From: Escherichia phage vB_EcoA_ASO2B
Reading direction: 5' to 3' (one strand)
Sequence record: MZ726794.1
Length of the DNA: 39,917 bases
Shown piece by piece: positions 1 through 39,209 of this stretch (position 1 is the first letter of the stretch; every line of letters starts with the position of its first letter). The notes below the pieces were generated by a model. It worked only from the letters and a program-made list of their open reading frames with translations, was not told where the DNA came from and made no database searches. Made by a program: the position numbers and the translations under genes.

Positions 1-100
1 AGGTCAACGATAGGTCTAGGCTATGGCTTATGGAAGGACGATAGGTAGAGGCTATAGGTCTTCTTTGAGTCTCTATCTGTATAGTGTTATAGTATAACAT
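1..100. repeat. Distal part of predicted direct terminal repeat (wraps from window end); boundaries approximate
   Basis: Bases ~60-100 (tctttgagtctctatctgtatagtg...) parallel the 3' end of the T7 terminal repeat just before the short-repeat array. Start of repeat inferred at ~39790. By analogy only; no second copy present in window. Confidence 0.35.
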
Positions 101-103
101 TAC

Positions 104-217
104 GTCCTACACCTACAGTCTCACTAACCTACAGTCTCACTAACCTACAGTCTCACTAACCTACAGTCTCAACCATAAGACACCAACACCTACAGTCATA
201 GACCTACAGTTACTAGA
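104..217. repeat. Left short-repeat array (SRL-like), ~7 tandem units with core CCTACAG
   Basis: Seen directly: acctacagtctcacta repeated at 111-126, 127-142, 143-158, degenerate copies to ~217. Analogous to T7 CCTAAAG arrays adjacent to the terminal repeat (concatemer processing/packaging region). Confidence 0.7.
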
Positions 218-321
218 CACAGAGCTATAGACTTAAGGTCCAAGACATGTTAGTCAAAGACTATATCCTCTTACACCATGAGGCCGACGATAGCTTAATC
301 AATATTATTTCAAATTACCTA

Positions 322-350
322 TTGACTATAGGTCAAGGATATGGCCTAAT
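322..350 (+). promoter_or_regulatory. Candidate host sigma70 early promoter (A1-like)
   Basis: TTGACT (322-327), 17-bp spacer, CCTAAT (345-350); located where T7 has its strong early host promoters. -10 element is weak; inference. Confidence 0.3.
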
Positions 351-461
351 AGCTTCCGTCAACACGACACGGCAACAACCGGATAGTGAAGACGCCGGTC
401 CGGTCCGGTTAAGTAGTCAGCCTGTAAGACATACGAACAACAGGCAACCGACAGAAAGTAG

Positions 462-491
462 TTGACAAGAAGTATATAATTAAAGTATTAT
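462..491 (+). promoter_or_regulatory. Candidate host sigma70 early promoter (A2/A3-like)
   Basis: TTGACA (462-467), 18-bp spacer, TATTAT (486-491); followed by gcagtaagac, resembling the T7 A2 region. Inference. Confidence 0.35.
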
Positions 492-733
492 GAATCTAAA
501 GCAGTAAGACGCCACCACGGAATTGGTAGCAGGTACACTCTAACCGCCTCACTAAGAGTAAATTGAGGGGCCGGGCTTCACCGAGTGAAGAAGGTCTGAT
601 TGTCGGATACTAAGTTACTACCTATAGCGCGGTAACAGAGAACGTTGGGAACTACGCAATACCCCGAGTTGGACAGCCAACAATGCTCTTTAACAATCTG
701 GATAAACTCTTAATGTACGCCGATAGCGACTAA

Positions 734-784
734 CTACAGGGCCTTTGAGTCTACATCTGAAGGCCCTGACTGATAGTCACTAAC
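734..784 (+). promoter_or_regulatory. RNase III-type processing hairpin (R0.3-like) preceding first early gene
   Basis: agggcctt...aaggccct inverted repeat followed by ctgactgatagtcactaac, a motif recurring before successive early genes; preceded by gctctttaacaatctgg, as found upstream of T7 R0.3. Confidence 0.45.
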
Positions 785-791
785 TTAACGG

Positions 792-1046
792 ATGAACACT
801 ATGAAACACTTAAGCACAATCACTAATCACAATGAAGTATTCGTGAACACTAAAGGTTATGCGTGGATTCAGCTTAAAGAGATGACAGGAGCGCGTCACC
901 GTGTGGTAGTGCGCAAGGTCTCAAGCAAGCCGTTCAGCAACTACAGCATAGATACTGTGCGCATAGACAACGAGACCTACCTGATAGATTCGCAGATAAC
1001 CGTGAGTCCTACAGCGGGCGTCTCAGCTCCTTATTTCGCTAACTGA
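792..1046 (+). CDS. Hypothetical early protein (84 aa)
   Basis: ORF exactly fills the gap between two R-site hairpins in the early region; weak SD; no recognisable family. Confidence 0.45.
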   Translation: MNTMKHLSTITNHNEVFVNTKGYAWIQLKEMTGARHRVVVRKVSSKPFSNYSIDTVRIDNETYLIDSQITVSPTAGVSAPYFAN

Positions 1047-1066
1047 GAGTGATTAACTACAGGTCG

Positions 1067-1101
1067 TTAGACTTATAGCGGCCTGACTGATAGTCACTAA
1101 C
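1067..1101 (+). promoter_or_regulatory. RNase III-type processing hairpin upstream of ocr
   Basis: ctacaggtcgttagacttatagcggcctgactgatagtcactaac; shares the gcctgactgatagtcactaac arm with the site at 734-784. Confidence 0.45.
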
Positions 1102-1119
1102 AACTGAGAGGATATAACT

Positions 1120-1650
1120 ATGGAACGTAACGCTAACGCATACTATGAGCTGCTGGCTGCAACCGTTGAGCTGTTCAATGAGCGTATTCAGTGCGACGAA
1201 ATAGCTGAAGGCGATGACTACAGTGATGCGCTGCATGAGGTCGTAGACGGTAATGTTCCGCATTATTACCACGAGATTTACACGGTGATGGCTGCTGATG
1301 GTATTGACAATGAGTTCGAAGACTCTGGGCTGATGCCTGAGACCAAGGACGTAACGCGTATACTACAAGCTCGCATCTATGAGGCACTGTATAACGATGT
1401 GTCTAATAGCTCTGAGGTGGTCTGGTTTGAGGCTGAAGAGGAAGACGAAAAGGCTGAAGAGGAAGACGAAAAGGCTGAATATTGGGTAGTTGACACTAGA
1501 ACAGGCGAGATAATTGAGGCAGCTGTATCACTTTGCGAGGCTATTGCATGTGCAAAAGAACTCTATGAGGAAGGTTTTCACATGCAAGTCGAAGACATCA
1601 ACGATAACGTAGTGTTCGATCCTGAGGCTGCTGAGGAGGACTGCGAGTGA
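1120..1650 (+). CDS. ocr: Ocr-like DNA-mimic anti-restriction protein (T7 gene 0.3 homolog), 176 aa with extended acidic C-terminus
   Basis: Translation contains [43 protein letters not shown], closely matching the T7 Ocr core ([43 protein letters not shown] as I recall it); strong SD gagagga; highly acidic. Confidence 0.85.
   Translation: [176 protein letters not shown]
1432..1479 (+). repeat. Perfect 21-bp tandem duplication (gctgaagaggaagacgaaaag x2 plus partial third) inside ocr
   Basis: Seen directly; encodes [16 protein letters not shown] in the acidic tail of Ocr. Confidence 0.85.
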
Positions 1651-1817
1651 TGGTAACTTATGGTCTCTGCCAGCACCACGTCACCAACGCCCGGCTTATG
1701 GTCAAGACCGGGAGATTAAACCACGAGGAGTCTATGCGTCTCTTGAAAGTGGTCTACAGGAGACGCAAGCGCATACACGACAGCCTACACGCTGAGGACA
1801 AGAAATATTTACCATAG
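1650..1817 (+). CDS. Possible small basic early protein (55 aa), start overlapping ocr stop (TGATG)
   Basis: ATG at 1650 overlaps the ocr TGA (1648-1650); ORF MVTYGLCQHHVTNARLMVKTGRLNHEESMRLLKVVYRRRKRIHDSLHAEDKKYLP ends at TAG 1815-1817; below the ORF-track size cutoff; occupies the gap before the next R-site. Confidence 0.25.
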   Translation: MVTYGLCQHHVTNARLMVKTGRLNHEESMRLLKVVYRRRKRIHDSLHAEDKKYLP

Positions 1818-1856
1818 CCTGACCATAACGCTGACAGGTGGGTACTGAGTGTTAAA

Positions 1857-1902
1857 CTACAGGTCATCTACATGGTGGCCTGAGTGATTACCACTTGATA
1901 AC
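1857..1902 (+). promoter_or_regulatory. RNase III-type processing hairpin
   Basis: ctacaggtcatctacatggtggcctgagtgattaccacttgataac; shares caggtcat...ggtggcct with the late R-sites. Confidence 0.45.
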
Positions 1903-1919
1903 TACAGAAGGAAAGAATA

Positions 1920-2267
1920 ATGACTGCTAAAACTCGCAATGTATTCTCGGTAGCATTTAAACTCAACGTTGTTAACTACTACACCTCTCTGCCTGAGGGA
2001 GTTATGGATAGGGTGACTGAAACCGCCCAAAAGTTCGGGGTGGGAACGAGTTCGGTGAAGCGCTGGTTTACTCAGTATATCCGTGGTGAGCTTGCCATGG
2101 AAAACGCTATTGCGGTGAGTCGCCGGCCTTCTAAGGTAATAACAGGTGATATTTACCACCTTGCAGGAAAGGACTTCAAGTCCAAAGAGGAGGCGATACG
2201 CTATGCGGTTGAGCTTGCTGGTGGGCTGACTGTAAGCAAGATGACCACTGTATCGGTGGAAGTGTAA
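1920..2267 (+). CDS. Hypothetical early protein (115 aa) with probable N-terminal helix-turn-helix
   Basis: SD aagga 8 nt upstream; N-terminal segment VVNYYTSLPEGVMDRVTETAQKFGVGTSSVKRWFTQY resembles the HTH of IS3-family transposase N-termini (pattern recognition only). Confidence 0.5.
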   Translation: MTAKTRNVFSVAFKLNVVNYYTSLPEGVMDRVTETAQKFGVGTSSVKRWFTQYIRGELAMENAIAVSRRPSKVITGDIYHLAGKDFKSKEEAIRYAVELAGGLTVSKMTTVSVEV

Positions 2268-2277
2268 CCGTGTAAGG

Positions 2278-2345
2278 CCTAGCTGAGTGATAGACGAGAG
2301 GTCATCGACTGATAGGTGGCCTCAAAGATTACCACTTAAATTGAT
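2278..2345 (+). promoter_or_regulatory. RNase III-type processing hairpin
   Basis: aggcctagctgagtgatagacgagaggtcatcgactgataggtggcctcaaagattaccacttaaattgatag; paralog of the site at 1857-1902. Confidence 0.4.
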
Positions 2346-2442
2346 AGAGGTTAACTATGAGTGTTGGACATTGGGTATGCTTATCTCCGGTCATCTTTCT
2401 GATAGCTTGGGGGATATACGACTGTATTAAACGGAAATCACT

Positions 2443-2640
2443 ATGAGTCTTGCACTATTGATAGCCATAGGCTATGGACTTATCGCCTACGTGCTGGTGA
2501 GAGACATCAATAAAGCGCATAGAGTATACAAATTAAACTATGTACGTCTGGGCCGCTGGACTGTACGTCAACCTAACGGACGATTCATGCGCAACTTAGC
2601 GAACGTCTGGGATATAGCAACTATTGGGAGCAAACTGTAA
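2443..2640 (+). CDS. Hypothetical small membrane protein (65 aa)
   Basis: N-terminal hydrophobic helix LALLIAIGYGLIAYVLV followed by a basic tail; stop overlaps next start (TAATG). Confidence 0.4.
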   Translation: MSLALLIAIGYGLIAYVLVRDINKAHRVYKLNYVRLGRWTVRQPNGRFMRNLANVWDIATIGSKL

Positions 2641-2900
2641 TGAAAACCGTATACATTAACAAGCCATCTATCCGTAGCCGTATAGAGCAAATACAGCGTG
2701 ACGAGTTCTTACATCGCCGCATGAAGGCTGAGGGCCATGAATCCGAACTGATGTGTCTGGCGTATGGTGGACGACCAATCACTGACGATGGTAAACTTTT
2801 AGTCTCAGGCTGGAAGGCGATGGACCAACGGTCAACCATCAAGCACACGACCAATGGTGACTTCAGCCATCTCCACGCTAACCAACTGATATGCAAGTGA
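2640..2900 (+). CDS. Hypothetical early protein (86 aa)
   Basis: ATG overlaps upstream stop (translational coupling); occupies the slot immediately upstream of gene 1 where T7 has the 0.7 kinase, but is far too small to be a kinase. Confidence 0.45.
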   Translation: MKTVYINKPSIRSRIEQIQRDEFLHRRMKAEGHESELMCLAYGGRPITDDGKLLVSGWKAMDQRSTIKHTTNGDFSHLHANQLICK

Positions 2901-2905
2901 TTATG

Positions 2906-2926
2906 ACTTAACTATCACTTTAGGAC
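2906..2926 (+). promoter_or_regulatory. Phage RNAP promoter variant (ttaactatcactTtagga) upstream of gene 1
   Basis: Matches the 11-member promoter family except A->T in the TATA element. Confidence 0.5.
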
Positions 2927-2997
2927 TAAAGGTCTAAGACTACAAGTGAAAGACCAAAGAGACTCTAAGTGAAAGACTAATAACAAGGACTTTAAGT

Positions 2998-5679
2998 ATG
3001 AGCGTCATCTCTATTGATAAACACGACTTCTCTGATGTGTCGAACGCCATTGAGCCGTTTAACCTGCTGGCTGACCACTACGGGCAGGACCTTGCAGTCA
3101 AGCAGCTTCAGCTTGAGCATGAGGCATACACTGAAGGCGAGCGACGTTTCATCAAAAACCTTGAGCGACAGACTGAGCGCGGGGAACTGGCAGACAATCA
3201 GGTCGCCAAGCCTTTGATGCAGACTCTGGTTCCTAAGATTGCGCAAGCCGTCAGGGAGTGGTATGAAGGTCCAGACGGGAAGCTGTCAACCTCTCGTCCT
3301 AGCGTAGCGTTCACCATGTTAAGCACCGAAGAGAAGGCCGTCAAGGACCGCTCTCTGCGTATCCCTTGCGAGTCTGCTGCGGTCATCATACTGAAGGTCA
3401 TACTCTCCAAGCTGGTAAAGCCTGAAGGGATACCGATTACACCGATGGCCTCCGCGATAGGTCGCACACTTGAGGACGAAATCCGCTTCGGTCGCATCCG
3501 TGACAAAGAGAAAGAGCACTTCAAGAAGGCGATAGCTGATAACCTGAATAAGCGGGCCGGGGCGTCCTACAAGAAAGCCTACATGCAAGCGGTCGAGACA
3601 TCCATGCTGGAGCAAGGCCAACTGGAAGATGCGTGGGGAACTTGGAGTCCTACAGAGGCTGTCCACGTGGGCATCAAGATGCTTGAGATTGTCATCCAGT
3701 CAACACAACTGGTCGAGCTTAAGCGGTACGGTGCTGGCAATGCAGCGGCTGACGTAGAGATGGTCCACCTGTCAGACTTCTGGGTAAAGAAGATGGCACA
3801 ACGAGGATTCAGCCTTGCGGGTATAGCTCCAGTCTACCAGCCTTGCGTCGTTCCACCTAAGCCGTGGACTGGTGTCGTAGGTGGTGGGTACTGGGCCAAA
3901 GGTCGCAGACCGCTACCCCTGATTCGCTTAGGGTCTAAATCAGCGGTGGCACGTTATGAAGACGTATACATGCCTGAAGTCTATGACGCTGTGAATATCA
4001 TCCAGAATACACCTTGGAAAGTGAACAAGAAGGTACTGGACGTGGTGAACATGGTCGAGAAGTTGAACAAAACGCCTATTGATGACATCCCTCAGATGGA
4101 GCCACTGAAGCCTGAAGACTATGCGGGTGAGACTGAGGAGGAACTCAAGGCATGGAAGAAGGCTGCTGCTGGTATCTATCGCCGCGAGAAGGCCCGACAG
4201 TCGCGAAGATTGTCACTGAGCTTTATCGTTAACCAAGCGAACAAGTTCTCTCAGTTCAAGGCCATCTGGTTCCCGTACAACATGGACTGGCGTGGGCGCG
4301 TCTACGCTGTGCCGATGTTCAACCCTCAAGGTAACGACATGCAGAAAGGTCTCCTTACTCTGGCAGTCGGTAAGCCTATTGGTGCTGACGGTTTCAAATG
4401 GCTGAAGGTCCATGGTGCAAACTGCGCGGGTGTTGATAAAGTCACCTTCGAGGAGCGCATCAAGTGGGTGGAAGACAACCACGACAACATTATGGCTGCT
4501 GCTAAGGCACCTATGGATAGCATTGAGTGGTGGGGCAAGTTAGACTCTCCGTTCTGCTTCCTTGCGTTCTGCTTCGAGTATGCTGGTGTAATGCATCACG
4601 GATTGTCTTACTCCTGCTCATTACCGATAGCGTTCGATGGGTCATGCTCAGGGATTCAGCACTTTAGCGCGATGCTTCGTGATCACATAGGTGGACATGC
4701 AGTAAACCTAACGCCTTCCGGTAAGGTCCAAGACATCTACCGAATCGTGTCCGACCGCATTGAGGAAGAGCTTAAAGTCCTGCTGGTTAACGGCACAGAC
4801 AACGAGATGGTAACTCACGAGGACAAGAAAACTGGTGAGATTACCGAACGCCTCAAGCTGGGGACACGAGAGCTGGCCCGGCAGTGGCTGACTTACGGCA
4901 TGTCACGCAAGGTCACTAAGCGTTCAGTAATGACTCTGGCCTATGGGTCGAAAGAGTACGGCTTCGCAGACCAAGTTTATGAGGACATCGTGATGCCGGC
5001 GATTGACTCAGGGTCTGGCGCTATGTTCACCGAACCAAGCCAAGCGTCCCGCTTCATGGCTAAGATGATTTGGGAAGCTGTGAGCGTGACCGTAGTTGCT
5101 GCGGTTGACGCAATGAAGTGGCTTCAGGGTGCTGCCAAGCTGCTGGCTGCTGAAGTGAAGGACAAGAAGACTGGAGAAATCCTGAAGCCTTGCCTTCCGG
5201 TACACTGGGTAACACCTGATGGTTTCCCGGTCTGGCAGGAATACCGCAAGAAGGATACCACCCGTCTGAATCTGATGTTCTTAGGGTCATTCAACCTTCA
5301 ACCTACGGTCAACAAAGGCATGAAGAAAGAGTTGGACAAGCAAAAGCAGGAGTCAGGCATTAGCCCGAACTTCGTCCACTCACAAGATGGTAGCCACCTA
5401 CGCAAGACTGTAGTCCACACGCACCGCAAGTATGGCGTGATGTCCTTCGCAGTGATTCACGATAGCTTCGGGACCATCCCTGCTGACGCTGAGTATCTGT
5501 TCCGTGGTGTCCGTGAGACGATGGTCGAGACCTACCGCGATAACGATGTGCTGCTTGACTTCTACGAGCAGTTTGAATACCAGCTTCACGAGAGCCAGCG
5601 CGACAAGTTACCTGAGCTTCCGAAGAAAGGTAAACTGAATATCGAAGACATTCTGTCTTCAGACTTTGCATTCGCTTAA
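2998..5679 (+). CDS. Single-subunit DNA-dependent RNA polymerase (T7 gene 1 homolog), 893 aa
   Basis: Size and position as T7 RNAP (883 aa); C-terminus ...DFAFA as in T7; conserved segments e.g. RRPLPLIRLGSKS, FDGSCSGIQHFSAMLRD, HDSFGT. Confidence 0.97.
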   Translation: MSVISIDKHDFSDVSNAIEPFNLLADHYGQDLAVKQLQLEHEAYTEGERRFIKNLERQTERGELADNQVAKPLMQTLVPKIAQAVREWYEGPDGKLSTSRPSVAFTMLSTEEKAVKDRSLRIPCESAAVIILKVILSKLVKPEGIPITPMASAIGRTLEDEIRFGRIRDKEKEHFKKAIADNLNKRAGASYKKAYMQAVETSMLEQGQLEDAWGTWSPTEAVHVGIKMLEIVIQSTQLVELKRYGAGNAAADVEMVHLSDFWVKKMAQRGFSLAGIAPVYQPCVVPPKPWTGVVGGGYWAKGRRPLPLIRLGSKSAVARYEDVYMPEVYDAVNIIQNTPWKVNKKVLDVVNMVEKLNKTPIDDIPQMEPLKPEDYAGETEEELKAWKKAAAGIYRREKARQSRRLSLSFIVNQANKFSQFKAIWFPYNMDWRGRVYAVPMFNPQGNDMQKGLLTLAVGKPIGADGFKWLKVHGANCAGVDKVTFEERIKWVEDNHDNIMAAAKAPMDSIEWWGKLDSPFCFLAFCFEYAGVMHHGLSYSCSLPIAFDGSCSGIQHFSAMLRDHIGGHAVNLTPSGKVQDIYRIVSDRIEEELKVLLVNGTDNEMVTHEDKKTGEITERLKLGTRELARQWLTYGMSRKVTKRSVMTLAYGSKEYGFADQVYEDIVMPAIDSGSGAMFTEPSQASRFMAKMIWEAVSVTVVAAVDAMKWLQGAAKLLAAEVKDKKTGEILKPCLPVHWVTPDGFPVWQEYRKKDTTRLNLMFLGSFNLQPTVNKGMKKELDKQKQESGISPNFVHSQDGSHLRKTVVHTHRKYGVMSFAVIHDSFGTIPADAEYLFRGVRETMVETYRDNDVLLDFYEQFEYQLHESQRDKLPELPKKGKLNIEDILSSDFAFA

Positions 5680-5694
5680 TAACAGGAGAAGTAT

Positions 5695-5925
5695 ATGTCA
5701 ATGAAACTTGTAGCACACAACAAAGCATTCAACGATGGGTCGGGACGTTGTCATGTAGAGCTGACTTATAAGGATTTAGTCATTCTCAGAGACAGATTAC
5801 AAGCTGGTGTTACTGGGTGGATTCAACCTAACGAGTACAACCTTATCGCTTCGATTGACGAAGTGCTTAACGCGTGGAGGGAAGACGAGCGCACTCAGTA
5901 TCCATCATTCCCTACAATTAGATAA
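5695..5925 (+). CDS. Hypothetical protein (76 aa) downstream of RNAP
   Basis: SD aggaga 7 nt upstream of ATG; no family recognised. Confidence 0.5.
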   Translation: MSMKLVAHNKAFNDGSGRCHVELTYKDLVILRDRLQAGVTGWIQPNEYNLIASIDEVLNAWREDERTQYPSFPTIR

Positions 5926-5935
5926 GGAGCTAGTT

Positions 5936-6151
5936 ATGAAATTTGCACACAAGCATACTGGCGTTAATGGTGGGACTCAAATCGTGACCGTAACAGAACA
6001 CAACGGCGCGGGTCTGGTGAAGACCACGGTCATCCCGACCAAGATGTCCAAGCAGCTTAACATCCCGTTCAAGACTCTTGTAGATCTGGTCGAGTCCAGC
6101 CACGAGAAGTACCTGAAGGACGCAGTGTCCAAGCTGGAGCAGGCCAAATGA
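5936..6151 (+). CDS. Hypothetical protein (71 aa)
   Basis: Internal ATG at 5936 of track ORF 5807..6151, preceded by SD aaggag (5924-5929); the longer track ORF would overlap the upstream gene. Confidence 0.5.
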   Translation: MKFAHKHTGVNGGTQIVTVTEHNGAGLVKTTVIPTKMSKQLNIPFKTLVDLVESSHEKYLKDAVSKLEQAK

Positions 6152-6225
6152 CAGACCTACAGTCACTGGCCTTGTGGCTAGGAGCACTCGCAGTATTCAC
6201 TTTAATCCAACGCAGAAGAGGTTAA

Positions 6226-6248
6226 CCCTAAACTATCACTATAGGATT
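6226..6248 (+). promoter_or_regulatory. Phage RNAP promoter (ctaaactatcactatagga)
   Basis: Consensus core; position equivalent to T7 phi1.1. Confidence 0.75.
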
Positions 6249-6292
6249 AGACTCAAGGTCATGACTCAAAGTCGTGGCCTTCATGATTAACC
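6248..6292 (+). promoter_or_regulatory. RNase III-type processing site (R1.1-like)
   Basis: tagactcaaggtcatgactcaaagtcgtggccttcatgattaac; same motif at 13468 and 36784; resembles T7 R0.3 (actcaagg...gtgccctttatgat). Confidence 0.55.
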
Positions 6293-6321
6293 CTAACGTA
6301 AACTACTGGAGATTTAACCAC

Positions 6322-6501
6322 ATGTATCAGAACACTATCAACTTTGAGCGCATCCGTGAACGTCAGCAGACTGAAGACTACATCCCGAAGGGACGCAAGC
6401 TGAACAAGATCAAGCGTGGTGGTGGTGTCAAAGGCGCTTTCCGTAATGCTGAAGGTAAAGACTCTCTGGTCAACCAAGAGAAATACTTCGTAGGAGCATA
6501 A
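6322..6501 (+). CDS. gp1.1-like small basic protein (59 aa)
   Basis: Internal ATG 6322 with SD ggag; contains KGRKLNKIKR like T7 gp1.1 (KGRKLNKTKR); the upstream part of track ORF 6274..6501 lies within the R-site. Confidence 0.6.
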   Translation: MYQNTINFERIRERQQTEDYIPKGRKLNKIKRGGGVKGAFRNAEGKDSLVNQEKYFVGA

Positions 6502-6505
6502 CCAA

Positions 6506-6769
6506 ATGGGCCGACTTTATAGTGGCATCCTCAACGCTTTCAGAGCAGCGTGTAACAGGCTCTACCAGTTAGACTTCGCTGTTATATCTCAGGAGTTTCA
6601 AGACCATGTGTCACGCCAAGAGTGCATGAGACTCAGGGTGGAGGACCGAGCTGGTAACATCTTCGCGCTTGAGACCTTCACACACTACGATGAAGACGTG
6701 CTGTATAATACTGCAACCAACTACCTCAACGGTCTCGCTGACCATATCGACACATGGAGCAAAGCATAA
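6506..6769 (+). CDS. gp1.2-like protein (host dGTPase inhibitor homolog), 87 aa
   Basis: Begins MGRLYSG..., with ...HYDEDVLYN, matching T7 gp1.2 (MGRLYSGNL..., HHDEDVLFN). Confidence 0.85.
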   Translation: MGRLYSGILNAFRAACNRLYQLDFAVISQEFQDHVSRQECMRLRVEDRAGNIFALETFTHYDEDVLYNTATNYLNGLADHIDTWSKA

Positions 6770-7845
6770 TGACAACTATTAAAACCAACCCGCACCGCGC
6801 TGTAGATTACTCTGAGTCTGGCGTTAAGAAGGCACTGGAAGCAGCCGGGTCTCTGGAAGCTGAAGTGAAGTACGACGGTGTGCGCCTGAATCTCCCGGTC
6901 CTGCGTGAAGGTGAGACCTACTGGCTGAGTCGTGAGTCTAAACCTCTTCCAGCCTTGGAGTGGATGAACTCTGAGTTAGGGAATGCGTGGACCCAAGCTG
7001 ACTGGCGCTGGTTCCTACGTCAAGCTGGCTACGAAGGTGTGGGCATGATGATTGATGGCGAGGTCATGGTCAAAGGTGTAGACTTCAACACCTCCTCAGG
7101 TCTCATCCGCACGAAGTGGCTGAAGCCTAACAACGAGGAGTTCGCTGAATGCTATCCGTGGCGCGGTAAGAAGGTCCCGTTCTGGGCCGCCCGGTCAAGA
7201 CTTCAGGTTGTGGTATACGGTGTCGTAGACATGACAACCATTGCTGACCCGAAAGCCGAAGGTCCTATCCATAGCGTCACACGCCTGAAGGCCGAAGCTA
7301 TCGTCCCTCTCCTCCAGAAATACTTCCCGGAAATCGACTGGGTTCTGTCTGAGTCACACACGGTCTATGACCTTGAGTCGCTCAACTCCCTGTACGAAGA
7401 GAAGCGTCTGGAAGGACATGAGGGTCTGGTAGTCAAAGACCCGCTTGGTAAGTGGAAGCGTGGCAAGAAGTCAGGCATGTGGAAAATGAAGCCTGAGGAT
7501 ACCATCGACGGGACCGTATGCGGACTCGTGTGGGGGACTCCGGGTAAGGCTAACGAAGGTAAGGTCATCGGCTTCGAGGTTCTGCTGGAGGACGGAATGG
7601 TAGTTAATGCTTGTGGTCTGACTGAAGAACAGAAGGACGAGTTCACAGCTAACGTCGCTGAATCTAGTGGTTATACCTTGGCTGGTGGCCCTGTGGTTAT
7701 TCAGGATGGGACCGAGAAGATCAACCCATACGAAGGCTGGCAGTGCGAAGTCCTCTTCATGGAGCGGTTCCCAGATGGTTCCCTTCGTCACCCTAGCTTC
7801 AAGTGCTGGCGCGGAACGGAAGATAACCCAACTGTTAAGAGTTAA
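6754..7845 (+). CDS. ATP-dependent DNA ligase (T7 gene 1.3 homolog), 363 aa
   Basis: Adenylation motif KYDGVR (EVKYDGVRLN); size as T7 ligase (359 aa); followed by the early terminator. Confidence 0.92.
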   Translation: MEQSIMTTIKTNPHRAVDYSESGVKKALEAAGSLEAEVKYDGVRLNLPVLREGETYWLSRESKPLPALEWMNSELGNAWTQADWRWFLRQAGYEGVGMMIDGEVMVKGVDFNTSSGLIRTKWLKPNNEEFAECYPWRGKKVPFWAARSRLQVVVYGVVDMTTIADPKAEGPIHSVTRLKAEAIVPLLQKYFPEIDWVLSESHTVYDLESLNSLYEEKRLEGHEGLVVKDPLGKWKRGKKSGMWKMKPEDTIDGTVCGLVWGTPGKANEGKVIGFEVLLEDGMVVNACGLTEEQKDEFTANVAESSGYTLAGGPVVIQDGTEKINPYEGWQCEVLFMERFPDGSLRHPSFKCWRGTEDNPTVKS

Positions 7846-7855
7846 CTAAATTTCA

Positions 7856-7895
7856 ACCCAGTGGTCTTAGCGGACTGCTGGGTTTCTTTGCTTTG
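7856..7895 (+). terminator. Early rho-independent terminator (TE-like)
   Basis: Stem AACCCAGTGGTC / GACTGCTGGGTT (7856-7885, with G-U pairs), loop ttagcg, then tctttgctttg. Confidence 0.7.
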
Positions 7896-7929
7896 TGCTA
7901 GCAAGCTATAGTCTTGGCCACCAGCTAGA

Positions 7930-7952
7930 CCCTAAGCTATCACTATAGGACA
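7930..7952 (+). promoter_or_regulatory. Phage RNAP promoter variant (ctaagctatcactatagga)
   Basis: Core atcactatagg present; upstream aaGctat variant. Confidence 0.65.
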
Positions 7953-7977
7953 ACCATCAACAACCTAAGGAGACTCT

Positions 7978-8232
7978 ATGTCTAAGAACTTAATGTTCAA
8001 CCGTTATACCGATACCTTCCACCTGTCCAACAACCCGTTTGCTTGCATTAAGCGTAACGAGAAGCTGGGCTACTTCGGGAAGGCCGTTAAGCTGTCACCT
8101 ACAGTCTTCGCTCTGATTACTCCGGGCAAAGCTGAAGAGGCTCGCCAGAAGCGCGAGACCAGCGTACCTGTGGTCTACACTAAGTGGCCTCGTGTTCGCC
8201 TGTTCGTTGAGTTCGTGAAGGAGGTGTTCTGA
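7978..8232 (+). CDS. Hypothetical protein (84 aa), gene 1.6 position
   Basis: SD aaggag upstream; stop overlaps next start (TGATG). Confidence 0.5.
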   Translation: MSKNLMFNRYTDTFHLSNNPFACIKRNEKLGYFGKAVKLSPTVFALITPGKAEEARQKRETSVPVVYTKWPRVRLFVEFVKEVF

Positions 8233-8774
8233 TGGGATGCATAGCTTGCTTAGAGAAGGATGACCGTTATCCACACACCTGTAATAAAGGAGTTAACAAC
8301 ATGACTGAACGCGAGCAAGAAATGATCGTGAAGCTGGTAGACAACAACGAAGGTCGCCCAGATTATTTGGATGGCTGCGGGATCCTTTGCTCTAATGTCC
8401 CTTGCCACCTCTGCCCCGCAAACAACAATCCCAAAATAACCTTAGGTGAAATCCGAGCGATGGACCATCGTAAGTCTAATCTGGATAAACAAGAGGTAAC
8501 TCCTACAGATGGCCAACCTTCCACTGAGTCAATCGACGCTGTCCGCAAGCCGTCCCACTATCAGGTCTTTGATGGTGTGGAATCCATTGAGATTATCGCT
8601 CGGTCCATGACTGTCAGTGAGTTCCGTGGCTTCTGCGTGGGTAACGTCCTGAAGTATCGACTCCGAGCTGGTAAGAAGTCCGAGCTGGCTACTATGGAGA
8701 AGGACCTAAACAAAGCGGCCTTCTATCAGGAGCTGTTCGACCTGCATAAAGGCAAGTGCTATGCTGCCGAGTGA
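8232..8774 (+). CDS. Probable gp1.7-like nucleotide kinase (180 aa)
   Basis: Synteny and size match T7 gene 1.7; Cys-rich N-terminus (CIACLEKDDRYPHTCNKG, CGILCSNVPCHLCP); sequence similarity to T7 gp1.7 is recalled, not verified. Confidence 0.6.
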   Translation: MGCIACLEKDDRYPHTCNKGVNNMTEREQEMIVKLVDNNEGRPDYLDGCGILCSNVPCHLCPANNNPKITLGEIRAMDHRKSNLDKQEVTPTDGQPSTESIDAVRKPSHYQVFDGVESIEIIARSMTVSEFRGFCVGNVLKYRLRAGKKSELATMEKDLNKAAFYQELFDLHKGKCYAAE

Positions 8775-8972
8775 ATGGTGCCGGGAGATGTACGAGAAGA
8801 CTCTCAACCCGGACTACATTACGTTATACAACCAATGGAAGGAGCGAGGTTTATGAACCAAGATCAGATTAACTTTGTGTGCCAGCTTATTAAGGAGTTC
8901 GTGGACTTCACTGATTTATCCGAAGATGAACTTGTTAAGCTGGAAGAGATTCTCGACAAGGAGATTTTATGA
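8775..8972 (+). CDS. Small acidic protein, gene 1.8 position; likely real start at 8853 (39 aa)
   Basis: ATG 8853 preceded by SD ggaaggag; stop overlaps gp2 start (ATGA). Confidence 0.4.
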
Positions 8973-9127
8973 CTGAGGTTGAGAAGAAATACATCGTGGA
9001 GCTTGAGGGTCGCGTTCAGTCCTTCGAGGTTCCGGTGTACGCAAAGTCTCTTGAAGAGGCTACCCTGAAGTCCCAAGAGTATGAGGACGCTGGTTTTGTG
9101 GTCGGACGGATTCGTCCTGAGACCTAA
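8969..9127 (+). CDS. Gp2-like inhibitor of host RNA polymerase (52 aa)
   Basis: Not in ORF track (<60 aa). [52 protein letters not shown]; matches T7 Gp2 SFEVPIYA...AGFEVTRVRP including the Arg pair. Confidence 0.75.
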
Positions 9128-9144
9128 ACTATCACTTTAGGACA
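9123..9144 (+). promoter_or_regulatory. Phage RNAP promoter variant (ctaaactatcactTtagga), phi2.5-like
   Basis: Overlaps gp2 stop; TTTAGG variant shared with the 2906 promoter. Confidence 0.6.
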
Positions 9145-9185
9145 GACGTCAAGTTTGTAACTTTTAAATGAGGAGATTTACACCA

Positions 9186-9887
9186 ATGGCTAAAGAGCAA
9201 CTGAAGACTTTCACCACTCCGGTATCTGGTATCGTTGAGCCTTACGCATGGCTGAACAAAGCAGACACCAAGTTTAACGAGCGTGGTGAGCATAAGGTTA
9301 ACCTGACATTCGACCTGAGCAACCCGAAGGTCCGTAAGATGATTGATGTCTTACAGAAGATTCACGACGATGCGTATGAGAAAGCACTCGCAGACCACGA
9401 GAAGAACCCGCCTCAGGTTCAGCGTGGCAAGAAGCCTATTGAACCACGAGAAGGCGACATGCCGTGGATTGAGAATGGTGACGGTACTGTTACCCTTAAG
9501 TTTAAATGCTTTGCGTCTTACCTTAAAGACGGCAAGTCAGAGCCTATCGTATTACGGTTCTACGACACTGATGCTAAGTTAATCCGTGACGTCCCGAATA
9601 TTGGCGCTGGCTCAAAGCTGAAGGTCAAGTTTAAAGTCCTGCCGTTCAAGTGGAACGCTGCGACTGGTGCAAGCGTTAAGCTCCAGCTTGAGTCCTGCCT
9701 TCTGGTAGAACTGAAGGAATGGAAAGGTGATGGTGCTGGTGGCGATGGTGGCTGGGGTGATGATGAAGACCTCGGTACTGGCTACAAAGCGTCAACCGAT
9801 GGTGACTTCGGTGACGATGACTTCGGTGACGATGGTTCCGAAGGTGGTGGTGACGACTCCAACTCTGGTGGCGATTACGACTTCTAA
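9186..9887 (+). CDS. Single-stranded DNA-binding protein (T7 gp2.5 homolog)
   Basis: Start MAKEQLK at 9186 with SD gaggag (track ORF starts 18 nt upstream inside the SD); motifs RGKKP, MPWIENGDGTVTLKFKC, SVKLQLES; C-terminal ...DYDF as in T7 gp2.5. Confidence 0.9.
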   Translation: MAKEQLKTFTTPVSGIVEPYAWLNKADTKFNERGEHKVNLTFDLSNPKVRKMIDVLQKIHDDAYEKALADHEKNPPQVQRGKKPIEPREGDMPWIENGDGTVTLKFKCFASYLKDGKSEPIVLRFYDTDAKLIRDVPNIGAGSKLKVKFKVLPFKWNAATGASVKLQLESCLLVELKEWKGDGAGGDGGWGDDEDLGTGYKASTDGDFGDDDFGDDGSEGGGDDSNSGGDYDF

Positions 9888-10339: not shown

Positions 10340-10809
10340 TGACTCAGAAATTTAGACTTAAGGTTAGTGACTACGGGTGGCCTAAAGGCACTATCGTTAC
10401 GAAATGTGCGAAAGACCCTGCACCATCAAACGGGCGTACTCTGGTGGAATCCACTGAGCGTGGCACATATAAACACGGAGCAGCAGGTCATAACACTCAG
10501 CCTGATGGTATGTGGGGGGCGTGGGTTGTAAACGAAAATCTTGAGGAAATCGTAGAGGATAAACCTCAGGTCCTACCAGCCTCAAGCGTCCCTCCTGTCA
10601 CCGTTAAACGTGAAGTCCTGACCATCAACAAGATTGGTGTAGGCCAGACGTTCATCGTCCACGGTAAGCCTGACGAAGTGTACGTGAAGATTAGCAACTC
10701 TCACGTATTCAACCACAAGCGGCTACAGATGCACACGACTGACGCACAGCGCTTCCAGTCACATCTGAATCTGGTGGTAGTAGAACTGGTGGTGTACAAT
10801 GGTAAGTAA
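10339..10809 (+). CDS. Hypothetical protein (156 aa) inserted between endonuclease I and lysozyme
   Basis: ATG 10339 overlaps gene 3 stop (TGATG), SD aaggag; no T7 counterpart at this position; no family recognised. Confidence 0.55.
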   Translation: MTQKFRLKVSDYGWPKGTIVTKCAKDPAPSNGRTLVESTERGTYKHGAAGHNTQPDGMWGAWVVNENLEEIVEDKPQVLPASSVPPVTVKREVLTINKIGVGQTFIVHGKPDEVYVKISNSHVFNHKRLQMHTTDAQRFQSHLNLVVVELVVYNGK

Positions 10810-11257
10810 GGTACAGTTCAACCCACGGTCCCGGACTGACGCTATCTTCGTGCACTGTTCGGCTACCAAGCCAGAGATGGACATCGGGGTAGAGACCATC
10901 CGTATGTGGCACAAGCAGCAAGGCTGGCTGGATGTAGGCTACCACTTTATCATCAAGCGTGATGGTACTGTGGAAGAGGGTCGCCCGGTAAATGTCGTAG
11001 GGTCACACGTTAAGGATTGGAACTCCCGGTCAGTAGGCGTCTGCCTTGTAGGTGGAATTGACGCTAAGGGTCAGTTTGAAGCTAACTTCACTCCAGCCCA
11101 GATGAACTCCCTGCGCAACAAGCTGGCTGACCTGAAGGTCCTGTATCCTCAGGCAGAAATCAAAGCACACCATGACGTAGCACCTAAGGCGTGTCCAAGT
11201 TTTGACTTGCAACGCTGGCTGTCTACCAATGAACTGGTCACTTCCGACCGTGGTTAA
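10799..11257 (+). CDS. Lysozyme / N-acetylmuramoyl-L-alanine amidase (T7 gene 3.5 homolog)
   Basis: TDAIFVHCSATKP...WLDVGYHFIIKRDGTVEEGR...HHDVAPKACPSFDL...NELVTSDRG matches T7 lysozyme almost throughout. Confidence 0.93.
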   Translation: MVSKVQFNPRSRTDAIFVHCSATKPEMDIGVETIRMWHKQQGWLDVGYHFIIKRDGTVEEGRPVNVVGSHVKDWNSRSVGVCLVGGIDAKGQFEANFTPAQMNSLRNKLADLKVLYPQAEIKAHHDVAPKACPSFDLQRWLSTNELVTSDRG

Positions 11258-17040: not shown

Positions 17041-17166
17041 TCTACTGGGCAGGACTTCTGGCCCTTTACTGCATGTACAAGTGGTTCGGGTCGAACAACC
17101 GTCCTAAACACTGAGTCTAACCGATAGTCATATCCTATTAATCCCACAGTCATCCATAGGTGAAAC

Positions 17167-17189
17167 ACTAAACTATCACTATAGGGACT
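17167..17189 (+). promoter_or_regulatory. Phage RNAP promoter (ctaaactatcactatagggac), phi6.5-like
   Basis: Perfect consensus; begins the late (class III-like) region. Confidence 0.8.
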
Positions 17190-17250
17190 TTAGGACCTAA
17201 GATATGACTATAAGATAGACTTTAGTCTTAACTTAAAGAGGAGATTCAAG

Positions 17251-32995: not shown

Positions 32996-35900
32996 ATGTC
33001 CACGATTACACAATTCCCTTCAGGAAACACTCAGTACAGGATTGAGTTCGACTACCTCGCCAGAACGTTTATTGTTGTTACGCTGGTGAATAGCTCTAAC
33101 CCTACCCTGAACCGTGTACTGGAAGTTGGTCGAGATTACCGATTCCTTAATCCAACGATGATTGAGATGTTGGTTGACCAATCAGGTTTCGACATCGTTC
33201 GTATTCACCGTCAGACTGGAACTGACTTAGTGGTAGACTTCAGGAATGGCTCAGTGTTGACAGCTAGTGACCTGACCAATTCAGAGCTTCAGGCTATCCA
33301 TATTGCAGAAGAAGGTAGAGACCAAACGGTTGACTTAGCGAAGGAATATGCCGATGCTGCTAGTAGCTCTGCTGGCAACGCTAAGGATAGCGAGGACGAA
33401 GCACGACGAATCGCTGAGAGTATCAGGGAAGCTGGTCTAATTGGCTATATTACCCGTCGCTCCTTCGAGAAAGGCTACAACGTTACAACATGGAGCGAGG
33501 TCCTGCTATGGGAAGAGGATGGTGATTATTACCGCTGGGATGGTACGCTTCCAAAGAACGTTCCTGCTGGTTCAACTCCTGAAACTTCCGGTGGGATTGG
33601 ATTAGGTGCGTGGGTTAGTGTTGGTGATGCTGCTTTAAGAAGTCAGATTTCAAATCCTGAGGGGGCAATACTCTACCCTGAATTACATAGAGCACGCTGG
33701 CTTGATGAAAAAGATGTTCGTGGTTGGGGTGCTAAAGGTGATGGTGTCACTGATGATACAGCAGCGTTAACGAGCGCATTAAACGACATACCGGTTGGAC
33801 AAAAGATTAATGGCAATGGGAAGACATATAAGGTCACGTCCCTGCCTGACATTAGTCGCTTCATCAACACTCGTTTCGTTTATGAGCGCATTCCCGGACA
33901 ACCTCTTTATTATGCCTCTGAGGAATTTGTTCAGGGTGAGTTGTTCAAAATAACTGACACCCCTTATTACAATGCGTGGCCTCAGGATAAAGCGTTCGTA
34001 TATGATAATGTGATATATGCACCTTACATGGGCAGCGATCGTCATGGTGTCAGTCGTCTGCATGTATCATGGGTTAAGTCTGGTGATGATGGTCAAACAT
34101 GGTCTACTCCAGAGTGGTTAACTGATCTGCATCCAGATTACCCTACAGTGAACTATCACTGTATGAGTATGGGTGTATGTCGCAACCGTCTGTTTGCCAT
34201 GATTGAAACACGTACTTTAGCCAAGAACGCATTAACCAATTGTGCATTGTGGGATCGCCCCATGTCTCGTAGCCTGCATCTTACTGGTGGTATCACTAAA
34301 GCTGCAAATCAGCAATATGCAACAATACATGTACCAGACCACGGACTATTCGTGGGTGATTTTGTTAACTTCTCTAATTCTGCGGTAACAGGTGTATCCG
34401 GTGATATGACTGTTGCAACCGTAATAGATAAGGACAACTTCACGGTTCTTACACCCAACCAGCAGACTTCAGATTTGAATAACGCTGGAAAGAATTGGCA
34501 CATGGGTACGTCTTTCCATAAGTCTCCATGGCGTAAGACAGACCTTGGTCTAATCCCTCGTGTCACAGAGGTGCATAGCTTTGCTACTATTGATAACAAT
34601 GGCTTTGTTATGGGTTATCATCAAGGCGATGTAGCCCCACGCGAAGTTGGGCTTTTCTACTTCCCTGATGCTTTCAATAGCCCATCTAGTTATGTTCGTC
34701 GTCAGATACCATCTGAGTATGAACCAGATGCGTCAGAGCCGTGCATCAAGTACTATGACGGTGTATTATACCTTATCACTCGTGGCACTCGTGGGGATAG
34801 ACTAGGTAGCTCTTTGCATCGTAGTAGAGACATAGGTCAGACTTGGGAGTCACTGAGATTTCCACATAATGTTCATCATACTACATTACCTTTTGCTAAA
34901 GTAGGGGATGACCTTATTATGTTTGGTTCAGAACGTGCAGAAAATGAATGGGAAGCAGGTGCACCAGATGATCGTTACAAGGCATCTTATCCTCGCACCT
35001 TCTATGCACGCTTGAATGTAAACAATTGGAATGCAGATGATATTGAATGGGTTAACATCACTGACCAGATTTATCAGGGCGGAATAGTTAACTCAGGTGT
35101 AGGTGTTGGTTCGGTAGTTGTGAAGGATAATTACATCTACTACATGTTTGGTGGAGAGGACCATTTTAACCCATGGGCATATGGAGATAACTCAGCGAAG
35201 GACCCATTCAAATCAGATGGTCATCCCTCAGATTTGTATTGCTACAAAATGAAGATTGGCCCAAGCAATCATGTTTCCCGTGATTTCAGGTATGGTGCTG
35301 TACCTAACAGAGCTGTTCCCGTGTTTTTTGATACGAATGGGATTCGCACTGTTCCTGCGCCAATGGAATTTACAGGGGATTTGGGTTTAGGTCATGTGAC
35401 CCTTAGAGCCAGCACCAGTAGTAACATTCGCTCTGAAGTTTTAATGGAAGGTGAATATGGGTTTATCGGGAAGTCTATACCGACTGATAATCCAGCAGGG
35501 CAGCGCACCATATTTTGCGGAGGTGAAGGCACCAGTTCAACGACTGGCGCACAGATTACGCTTTATGGTGCAAATAACACCGACTCAAGGCGAATAGTTT
35601 ACAATGGTGATGAGCATCTGTTCCAGACTGCTGACGTTAAGCCTTATAACGATAACGCCATTGCGCTTGGTGGGCCAAGTAACCGTTTCACAACTGCATA
35701 TCTCGGAAGCAACCCTATTGTTACTTCTAATGGGGAGAAGAAAACAGAGCCGGTAGTTTTTGATGATGCTTTCCTAGATGCCTGGGGTGACGTTCACTAC
35801 ATCATGTATCAATGGTTAGATGCTGTTCAACTGAAAGGCAATGATGCTCGTATTCACTTCGGGGTTATTGCTCAGCAAATTCGTGATGTATTCATTGCAC

Positions 35901-39186: not shown

Positions 39187-39209
39187 ACTTAACTATCACT
39201 ATAGGGAAG
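39187..39209 (+). promoter_or_regulatory. Phage RNAP promoter near right end (phiOR-like)
   Basis: gacttaactatcactatagggaaga. Confidence 0.8.

Follow-up and report, generated by a model that had tools for sequence, protein, structure and literature searches.

Immediately upstream of gene 1, which encodes the RNA polymerase of Escherichia phage vB_EcoA_ASO2B, the + strand carries the sequence TTAACTATCACTTTAGGA at positions 2908-2925 of MZ726794.1 (39,917 nt; this whole stretch was analysed and is referred to below as the window). We interpret the site as a promoter at which the phage's own T7-type RNA polymerase initiates, early-region-like in its sequence, fixed in the K1F lineage, and closing an autogene loop, and we place the probability of this reading at roughly 60%. 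The site genuinely belongs to the phage promoter family and, on the comparative evidence given below, it very probably functions as a promoter. The features that enter into the argument are collected in Table 1.

Table 1. Coordinates of features in the ASO2B window that bear on the promoter before gene 1.
Feature	Position	Strand	Basis or remark
Best sigma-70-type match, TTGACA-18-TATTAT, 11/12	462-491	+	presumed host-RNAP early promoter
ocr, 176 aa	1120-1650		
gp0.38 homologue, ORF directly upstream of the gene-1 promoter	2640-2900	+	stop TGA at 2898-2900
Phage-RNAP promoter before gene 1, -17..+6 (ACTTAACTATCACTTTAGGACTA)	2906-2928	+	alignment with family, matrix score, annotated orthologues
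Predicted leader of phage-RNAP gene 1 transcript, 75 nt	2923-2997	+	36% GC, 67% purine
21-nt direct repeat AGACTnnAAGTGAAAGACnAA, two copies in leader	2937-2957, 2960-2980	+	86% identity, spacing 23
Gene 1, T7-type single-subunit RNA polymerase, 893 aa	2998-5679	+	Pfam RNA_pol 1.5e-106, RPOL_N 3.6e-15
Next phage promoter 3' of gene 1, +1 = 6244	6227-6249	+	motif family, matrix
Ligase gene	6754-7845		
TE-like terminator directly 3' of ligase	7855-7884	+	hairpin + T-run
gp2 homologue, host RNA polymerase inhibitor	8969-9127	+	PF16857, 1.9e-20
Phage promoter before gene 2.5 (SSB), same CACTTTAGG (-3 T)	9123-9145	+	motif match 9125-9142
gp2.5 (SSB homologue)	9168-9887		
Amidase, T7 gp3.5 lysozyme homologue	10799-11257	+	PF01510, 2.4e-16

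The preliminary description of this DNA had pointed to a variant member of a promoter family about 75 bp 5' of gene 1, and the site is where it was said to be. With up to three mismatches allowed, the promoter motif has 12 matches in the whole genome, all of them on the + strand, against 0.03 expected from shuffled sequences. Alignment with the rest of the family puts the predicted +1 of the site before gene 1 at G2923, with a G at +2, and the ATG of gene 1 (2998) lies 75 nt 3' of this predicted start. Scored with a leave-one-out weight matrix, it reached 32.5 bits, compared with 27-37 bits for ten other good sites and 12.6 bits for the best non-family sequence of the genome; by matrix-scan rank it was tenth of the 12. 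Its sole departure from the core is an A>T change at -3, giving CACTTTAGG in place of CACTATAGG, with the rest of -17..+6 intact. It starts with GGA and not GGG, as do the other early-region promoters of this genome, and its positions -17..-13 (ACTTA) match the right-end promoter at 39189, unlike those of most internal promoters. Because the upstream ORF stops at its TGA (2898-2900), the promoter is intergenic, standing between that stop and the ATG of gene 1 on the same strand as the genes, and coding constraint was therefore rejected as a source of the conservation of the site.

Two other members of the family deserve mention. The site at 34149-34166 (TGAACTATCACTGTATGA) is degenerate, with T for G at +2, and scored 7.3 bits in the leave-one-out matrix and 22.9 bits in the scan, far below the remaining eleven sites; as a promoter it may be weak or dead. 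The promoter at 17169-17186 lies in a 75-nt stretch (17163-17237; 29% GC) that is more AT-rich than any other of this length in the genome. This promoter is followed by a second, degenerate promoter-like sequence (12.6 bits, with +1 near 17213) and by GACTTTAG/GACTATAAG elements in repeated form. In T7, origins consist of a promoter plus an AT-rich stretch, and by analogy 17163-17237 might be a replication-origin-like region.

For the interval 2400-3400, the window shared 99.4% identity with Escherichia phage Mt1B1_P3 and about 95% with K1F, and the source phage is by sequence a Kayfunavirus (K1F-like), with the usual gene content of a K1F-type early region around the gene-1 site. The window begins within the left terminal repeat, its position 1 being equivalent to nt 105 of both K1F and EcoDS1, so that little of the left end is missing. 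Eighty loci encoding relatives of the polymerase were fetched and 50 of them were scanned for promoter-like sites. All of the scanned loci with a polymerase identity of at least 79% had a site 75-102 nt before the start of the aligned polymerase match, and in all K1F-like genomes examined the site lay 75-87 nt upstream of gene 1 (in CR8, 87 nt from the annotated ATG). It was also present in Kayfunaviruses of other hosts, namely Pisces (E. coli), Kc166A (Kosakonia), and LET1 (Pectobacterium). In a set of 27 distinct K1F-type intergenic sequences, no variation was seen at -13..-4 and +1..+5 except at -10/-9 in the two GW1-type loci, while positions -3/-2 varied. The preliminary description had stated that T7 has no phage promoter just before gene 1 and had proposed a comparison with T3- and K1F-type genomes at the equivalent position; the statement was correct, since no promoter was found within 400 nt of gene 1 in the T7-, T3-, and K11-like loci (about 30 scanned; 58-63% polymerase identity), and the comparison separated these from the K1F-like genomes, all of which have the site. 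Judged from these alignments, the K1F lineage (Kayfunavirus) and its close relatives have the gene-1 promoter as a fixed feature.

The early region itself is mosaic within the group, with the gene-1 promoter as its fixed element. In ASO2B, small ORFs lie between ocr and the gp0.38 homologue, and one of these (1920-2267; 115 aa) gave a sub-threshold match to a Brinker-type helix-turn-helix (E 4e-4; 20.6 bits vs a cutoff of 23.4), with different small ORFs occupying the equivalent interval of K1F. No ORF of the size of the gene 0.7 kinase (about 240 aa) was found 5' of gene 1 here, the longest being the ocr gene. A protein kinase is annotated 5' of gene 1 in Pisces (L105 1844-2578) and LET1 (L107 347-1081), and the CR8 record notes a similarity to gene 0.7 (L108 1875-2603). 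No integrase or repressor context was seen near the gene-1 site. Many RefSeq and recent records (e.g. NC_007456, NC_047808, PV615262) label the T7-type polymerase an 'N4-like RNA polymerase', and several list unlikely Kayfunavirus hosts (Acinetobacter, Enterococcus, Staphylococcus); both look like mistakes of annotation or metadata.

That the gene-1 promoter works is strongly supported, on comparative grounds, by its co-variation with the specificity loop of the polymerase. We compared the loop residues aligned with T7 N748, R756, and Q758; residues 748, 756, and 758 contact promoter positions -11/-10, -9, and -8, respectively (cited in PMC5937735). In three lineages, the specificity bases at -12..-8 were paired with the loop, ACTAT with N/N/Q, ACCCT with D/R/Q, and a pair of its own in CR8. 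The K1F type has promoters with ACTATCAC and the loop N/N/Q, which is also what the gene 1 product of ASO2B has at these positions. In the GW1 type, represented by two loci close to Cronobacter phage GW1 (L018 and L038), ACCCTCAC (full form AAACCCTCACTATAGG) is present in every promoter, that before gene 1 included, and the loop is D/R/Q. The T3-like locus has an identical D/R/Q, and CCCT likewise occupies -11..-8 of its promoters. In Citrobacter phage CR8 (L016; genus Caroctavirus), the promoters, the one before gene 1 among them, all have GAAGGTACAC (full form GGAAGGTACACTATAGG), and the loop is divergent. Because the site tracks the specificity of the loop through two independent switches, it appears to have been selected for recognition by the phage polymerase, and its recognition by the gene 1 product thus has strong comparative support. 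These lineages are also a clear example from nature of promoters that change together with the specificity loop of the polymerase. The co-variation indicates selection for polymerase recognition, but not necessarily for gene 1 expression; genome entry, replication priming, or the expression of downstream genes could instead be what the promoter is kept for.

In the two GW1-type loci, the sites lie at L018:3909-3931 and L038:3908-3930 and the polymerase genes at L018:4001-6664 and L038:4001-6664. The GW1-type polymerase is 88% identical to that of ASO2B, yet it is associated with a T3-like promoter specificity, and its AT-rich-recognition loop is different and shorter. The GW1 and K1F types look like the two sides of a natural and recent specificity switch between close relatives.

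The path from the promoter to gene 1 is open, with no terminator-like site, an unstructured leader, and a Shine-Dalgarno sequence in place. Folding of the leader region gave no significant secondary structure (z -0.48 and +0.56), the AAGGA at 2985-2989 stands 8 nt 5' of the gene 1 ATG, and both leader and Shine-Dalgarno sequence are kept among relatives. K1F-type relatives have kept the direct repeat of the leader, which is rearranged in the Pisces/LET1 type. No terminator-like site was found in 2923-2998 or farther upstream to the left end, and the TE-like terminator behind the ligase gene is the first such site 3' of the gene-1 promoter, except for a weak 5-bp match at 7326-7342. The EcoDS1 record is arranged alike, with three host-RNAP promoters at 469-800, a distance from the left end similar to that of the best sigma-70-type match here, a 'phi' promoter (6034-6056) at the equivalent place after gene 1, and TE annotated directly after its gene 1.3.

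From this arrangement we propose that, early in infection, the host RNAP would start at the left-end sigma-70 promoters and, because no terminator-like site intervenes, read through gene 1, making the first polymerase molecules. The new phage polymerase would then start at G2923 and produce a second, shorter gene 1 mRNA, whose 75-nt leader would be unstructured and carry a ribosome binding site of its own, and transcription from this start would run on into genes 1.1-1.3. In this way a positive feedback loop would be closed, making gene 1 a natural 'autogene', and the loop would keep gene 1 transcribed after gp2 had shut off the host polymerase. The Gp2 homologues of CR8 and CR44b inhibit E. 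coli RNAP (PMC3541766). Self-amplification of this kind is plausible from the architecture of the region, and an unrestrained polymerase autogene would be expected to be costly. The class II promoters of T7 are damped by T7 lysozyme. By analogy, the amidase of ASO2B is a candidate brake on the phage polymerase, and the loop would presumably be limited later in infection by this lysozyme-like inhibitor. A literature search, with the original K1F genome paper outside its reach, returned neither mapped transcript 5' ends nor in vitro transcription experiments for ASO2B or K1F-like phages, and no relevant description of K1F-like promoters or transcriptome was found.

The T7-type phages are wired differently. 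The T7-, T3-, and K11-like loci each have one phiOL-type promoter near the left end, 2.5-3.4 kb 5' of gene 1 and in the same orientation, with the next promoter directly after gene 1. In 17 K1F-like genomes, among them K1F, EcoDS1, Pisces, and CR8, whose left ends are defined, a scan allowing up to three mismatches found no other phage promoter left of gene 1, and a phiOL-like left-end promoter in ASO2B was likewise discarded after a matrix scan of the window. As each group has only one of the two arrangements, they look mutually exclusive. Since the phiOL of T7-type phages also lies 5' of gene 1, the capacity of a polymerase to transcribe its own gene is not unique in principle to the K1F type, and it is the position that differs. 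The ASO2B site is like T7 phiOL in its orientation, in being slightly non-canonical in sequence, and in having no other phage promoter beside it 5' of gene 1. In contrast, T7 phiOL is found near the genome end, before the host promoters, whereas the K1F-type site is 75 nt before gene 1, in ASO2B some 2.9 kb into the window and 3' of both the best sigma-70-type match and the early genes.

The intergenic slot before gene 1 differs between the groups as well. In the one T7-like locus that was folded, the spacer between gene 0.7 and gene 1 formed a significant hairpin (-25.9 kcal/mol; z -2.70), and we take this spacer to be the location of the R1 RNase III site of T7. Compared with this control, the z-scores of the ASO2B leader given above led us to reject an RNase III site or other RNA structure there, and an Rfam search over 1-9000 gave no match. 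The R1 site and the gene-1 promoter thus have in common the equivalent slot and the setting of a discrete 5' end for gene 1 mRNA, which in ASO2B is a predicted one, but the T7-like locus has a hairpin where the ASO2B region has a promoter.

These differences could also be read to mean that the promoter is functional but was selected as a replacement for phiOL, serving in genome entry, replication priming, or some other DNA transaction, with gene 1 transcription as a by-product; we regard this as unlikely, although it survives better than the other alternatives. The complementary distribution of the two promoter positions, with a single phage promoter left of gene 1 in either group, fits such a replacement, and T7 phiOL is weakly used and tied to RNAP-mediated genome entry (PMC6171733). 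The ACTTA shared with the right-end promoter points in the same direction, as does the leader, which is AT-rich (its GC content is at the 1.6th percentile) and contains six GAC triplets vs 1.7 expected. However, AT-rich and purine-rich leaders also follow other promoters of this genome (e.g. 17184, at 36% GC), so that this composition is not particular to the gene-1 site, and a separate replication-origin reading of the leader was dropped on the same ground and retained only as part of the phiOL-type role. Moreover, by the time that any phage polymerase exists, the host RNAP would already have transcribed and internalised gene 1, and with the promoter at 6229 near entry the gain from a second entry promoter would probably be small. 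The fixed short distance to gene 1, together with the conserved leader and Shine-Dalgarno sequence, has the look of an expression signal and favours an expression role over a phiOL-like one, but the two roles are not exclusive.

A second alternative concerns the -3 position, and holds that the A>T change has weakened or inactivated the promoter in ASO2B, leaving a decaying copy of one that works in relatives. At the gene-1 site, TTTAGG was seen only in ASO2B and Mt1B1_P3, while the IMG/VR relatives have TATAGG (n=13) or TAAAGG (n=6) and the 97.8% identical relative vB_Aba_01KA has TATAGG. Since the variant is confined to these two phages and vB_Aba_01KA differs, it would be a recent single-base change, and the low matrix-scan rank of the site is also in keeping with decay. 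On the other hand, the same CACTTTAGG core precedes gene 2.5 both here and in several relatives, which suggests that T at -3 is probably tolerated. The corresponding last sites of relatives, about 5.5-6.4 kb after the start of gene 1, have TTTAGG or TGTAGG, and in Kc166A all four of the promoters found in the first 10 kb, gene-1 site included, have G at -3. Natural forms among relatives thus comprise TATA, TAAA, TTTA, and TGTA, and this variation at -3/-2 stands against the invariance of -13..-4 and the otherwise intact -17..+6 of the ASO2B site. Substitutions at -4..-1 in the T7 promoter, according to the mutagenesis by Imburgio and co-workers in 2000, reportedly lower activity but do not abolish it; the literature search returned no measurements of how -3 A>T affects promoters of the T7 type. 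Based on these comparisons, the change is most likely neutral or mildly weakening; promoter activity in ASO2B could be reduced by it, but its decay to a relic of a once-working promoter seems distinctly improbable. That the site is a non-functional relic or chance match unused by the polymerase, such as the leftover of a duplication hinted at by the resemblance of the K1F downstream bases GGACTCAAGGTC to those after the 6229 promoter (GACTCAAGGTC), is very improbable, as chance is excluded by the size of the family and the matrix score, the invariance of -13..-4 across the 27 sequences is not expected of a relic, and, most tellingly, two other lineages show the specificity bases changing along with the polymerase loop.

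With a working promoter before gene 1 as the preferred reading, a broader scenario can be put forward tentatively, as a possibility that we would not yet call probable. The K1F/CR8 lineage may have rewired the T7 early region by dropping phiOL and the RNase III hairpin and installing a gene-1-proximal promoter for its own polymerase, which would make polymerase synthesis self-amplifying and independent of the host RNAP, with the natural variation at -3/-2 tuning the gain of the loop between strains. If this were true, a natural autogene would extend across the genus, and its control, e.g. by the lysozyme-like inhibitor, would be open to study and to borrowing for synthetic circuits. The K1F RNAP and its promoter parts are already in use in synthetic biology. 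If the feedback were confirmed, K1F-type phages would serve as a natural model for the restraint of a self-amplifying polymerase circuit. For annotation, the gain is that gene 1 has two predicted promoter inputs, one for the host and one for the phage polymerase, with no RNase III-type hairpin upstream, and that the T7 subfamily contains a lineage-level difference in early wiring, the K1F-like gene-1-proximal promoter vs the T7-like phiOL and hairpin. Current understanding is not overturned by this finding.

Any novelty that the preliminary description may have implied for the promoter is not supported, because the orthologous site is already annotated in two genomes. The record of EcoDS1 (EU734172) lists it at 2244-2266, between genes 0.38 and 1, as 'promoter phi', and that of CR8 (HG818824) lists it at 3356-3378 as 'predicted promoter'. 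Both share with ASO2B the position just after gene 0.38, 70-87 nt before gene 1, and the orientation, and both annotations are sequence-based. The EcoDS1 site has the same sequence except at -3 (TATAGG) and +6, with a nearly identical leader, whereas the CR8 site has its own specificity sequence, matching its own polymerase, in place of the K1F-type sequence with T at -3 of ASO2B. The silence of the K1F GenBank records on this point is uninformative, as they annotate no promoters at all. Given these annotations, the loop proposed for LUZ100, and the engineered T7 autogenes, the gene-1 promoter is real, ordinary for the genus, and already known both as an annotation and as a concept. What our comparison adds is the evidence from co-variation and the apparent mutual exclusion of the phiOL and gene-1-proximal arrangements.

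The closest experimental parallel is LUZ100, a T7-like Pseudomonas phage, in which the phi1 start directly 5' of the RNAP gene was mapped by ONT-cappable-seq and a positive feedback loop with a host-RNAP trigger was proposed (PMC10134795). Both phages have a promoter for their own single-subunit polymerase directly before the polymerase gene, but the start is experimentally mapped in LUZ100 and predicted in ASO2B, and the two are only distantly related. LUZ100 further differs in having a lysogeny module, with a MarR-like repressor proposed as the gate of its loop. Kayfunavirus is regarded as lytic. A similar placement of a promoter has been predicted in vibriophage phiA318 (PMC4099482). Engineered T7 autogenes, which show autocatalytic amplification, share with the proposed ASO2B loop a polymerase gene behind its cognate promoter, where a little polymerase acts as the trigger and autocatalysis follows (PMC1500874). 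The T7 autogene is artificial and usually built with a strong class III promoter, whereas the ASO2B promoter is natural, has a GGA start, and would be triggered by the host promoters upstream of it.
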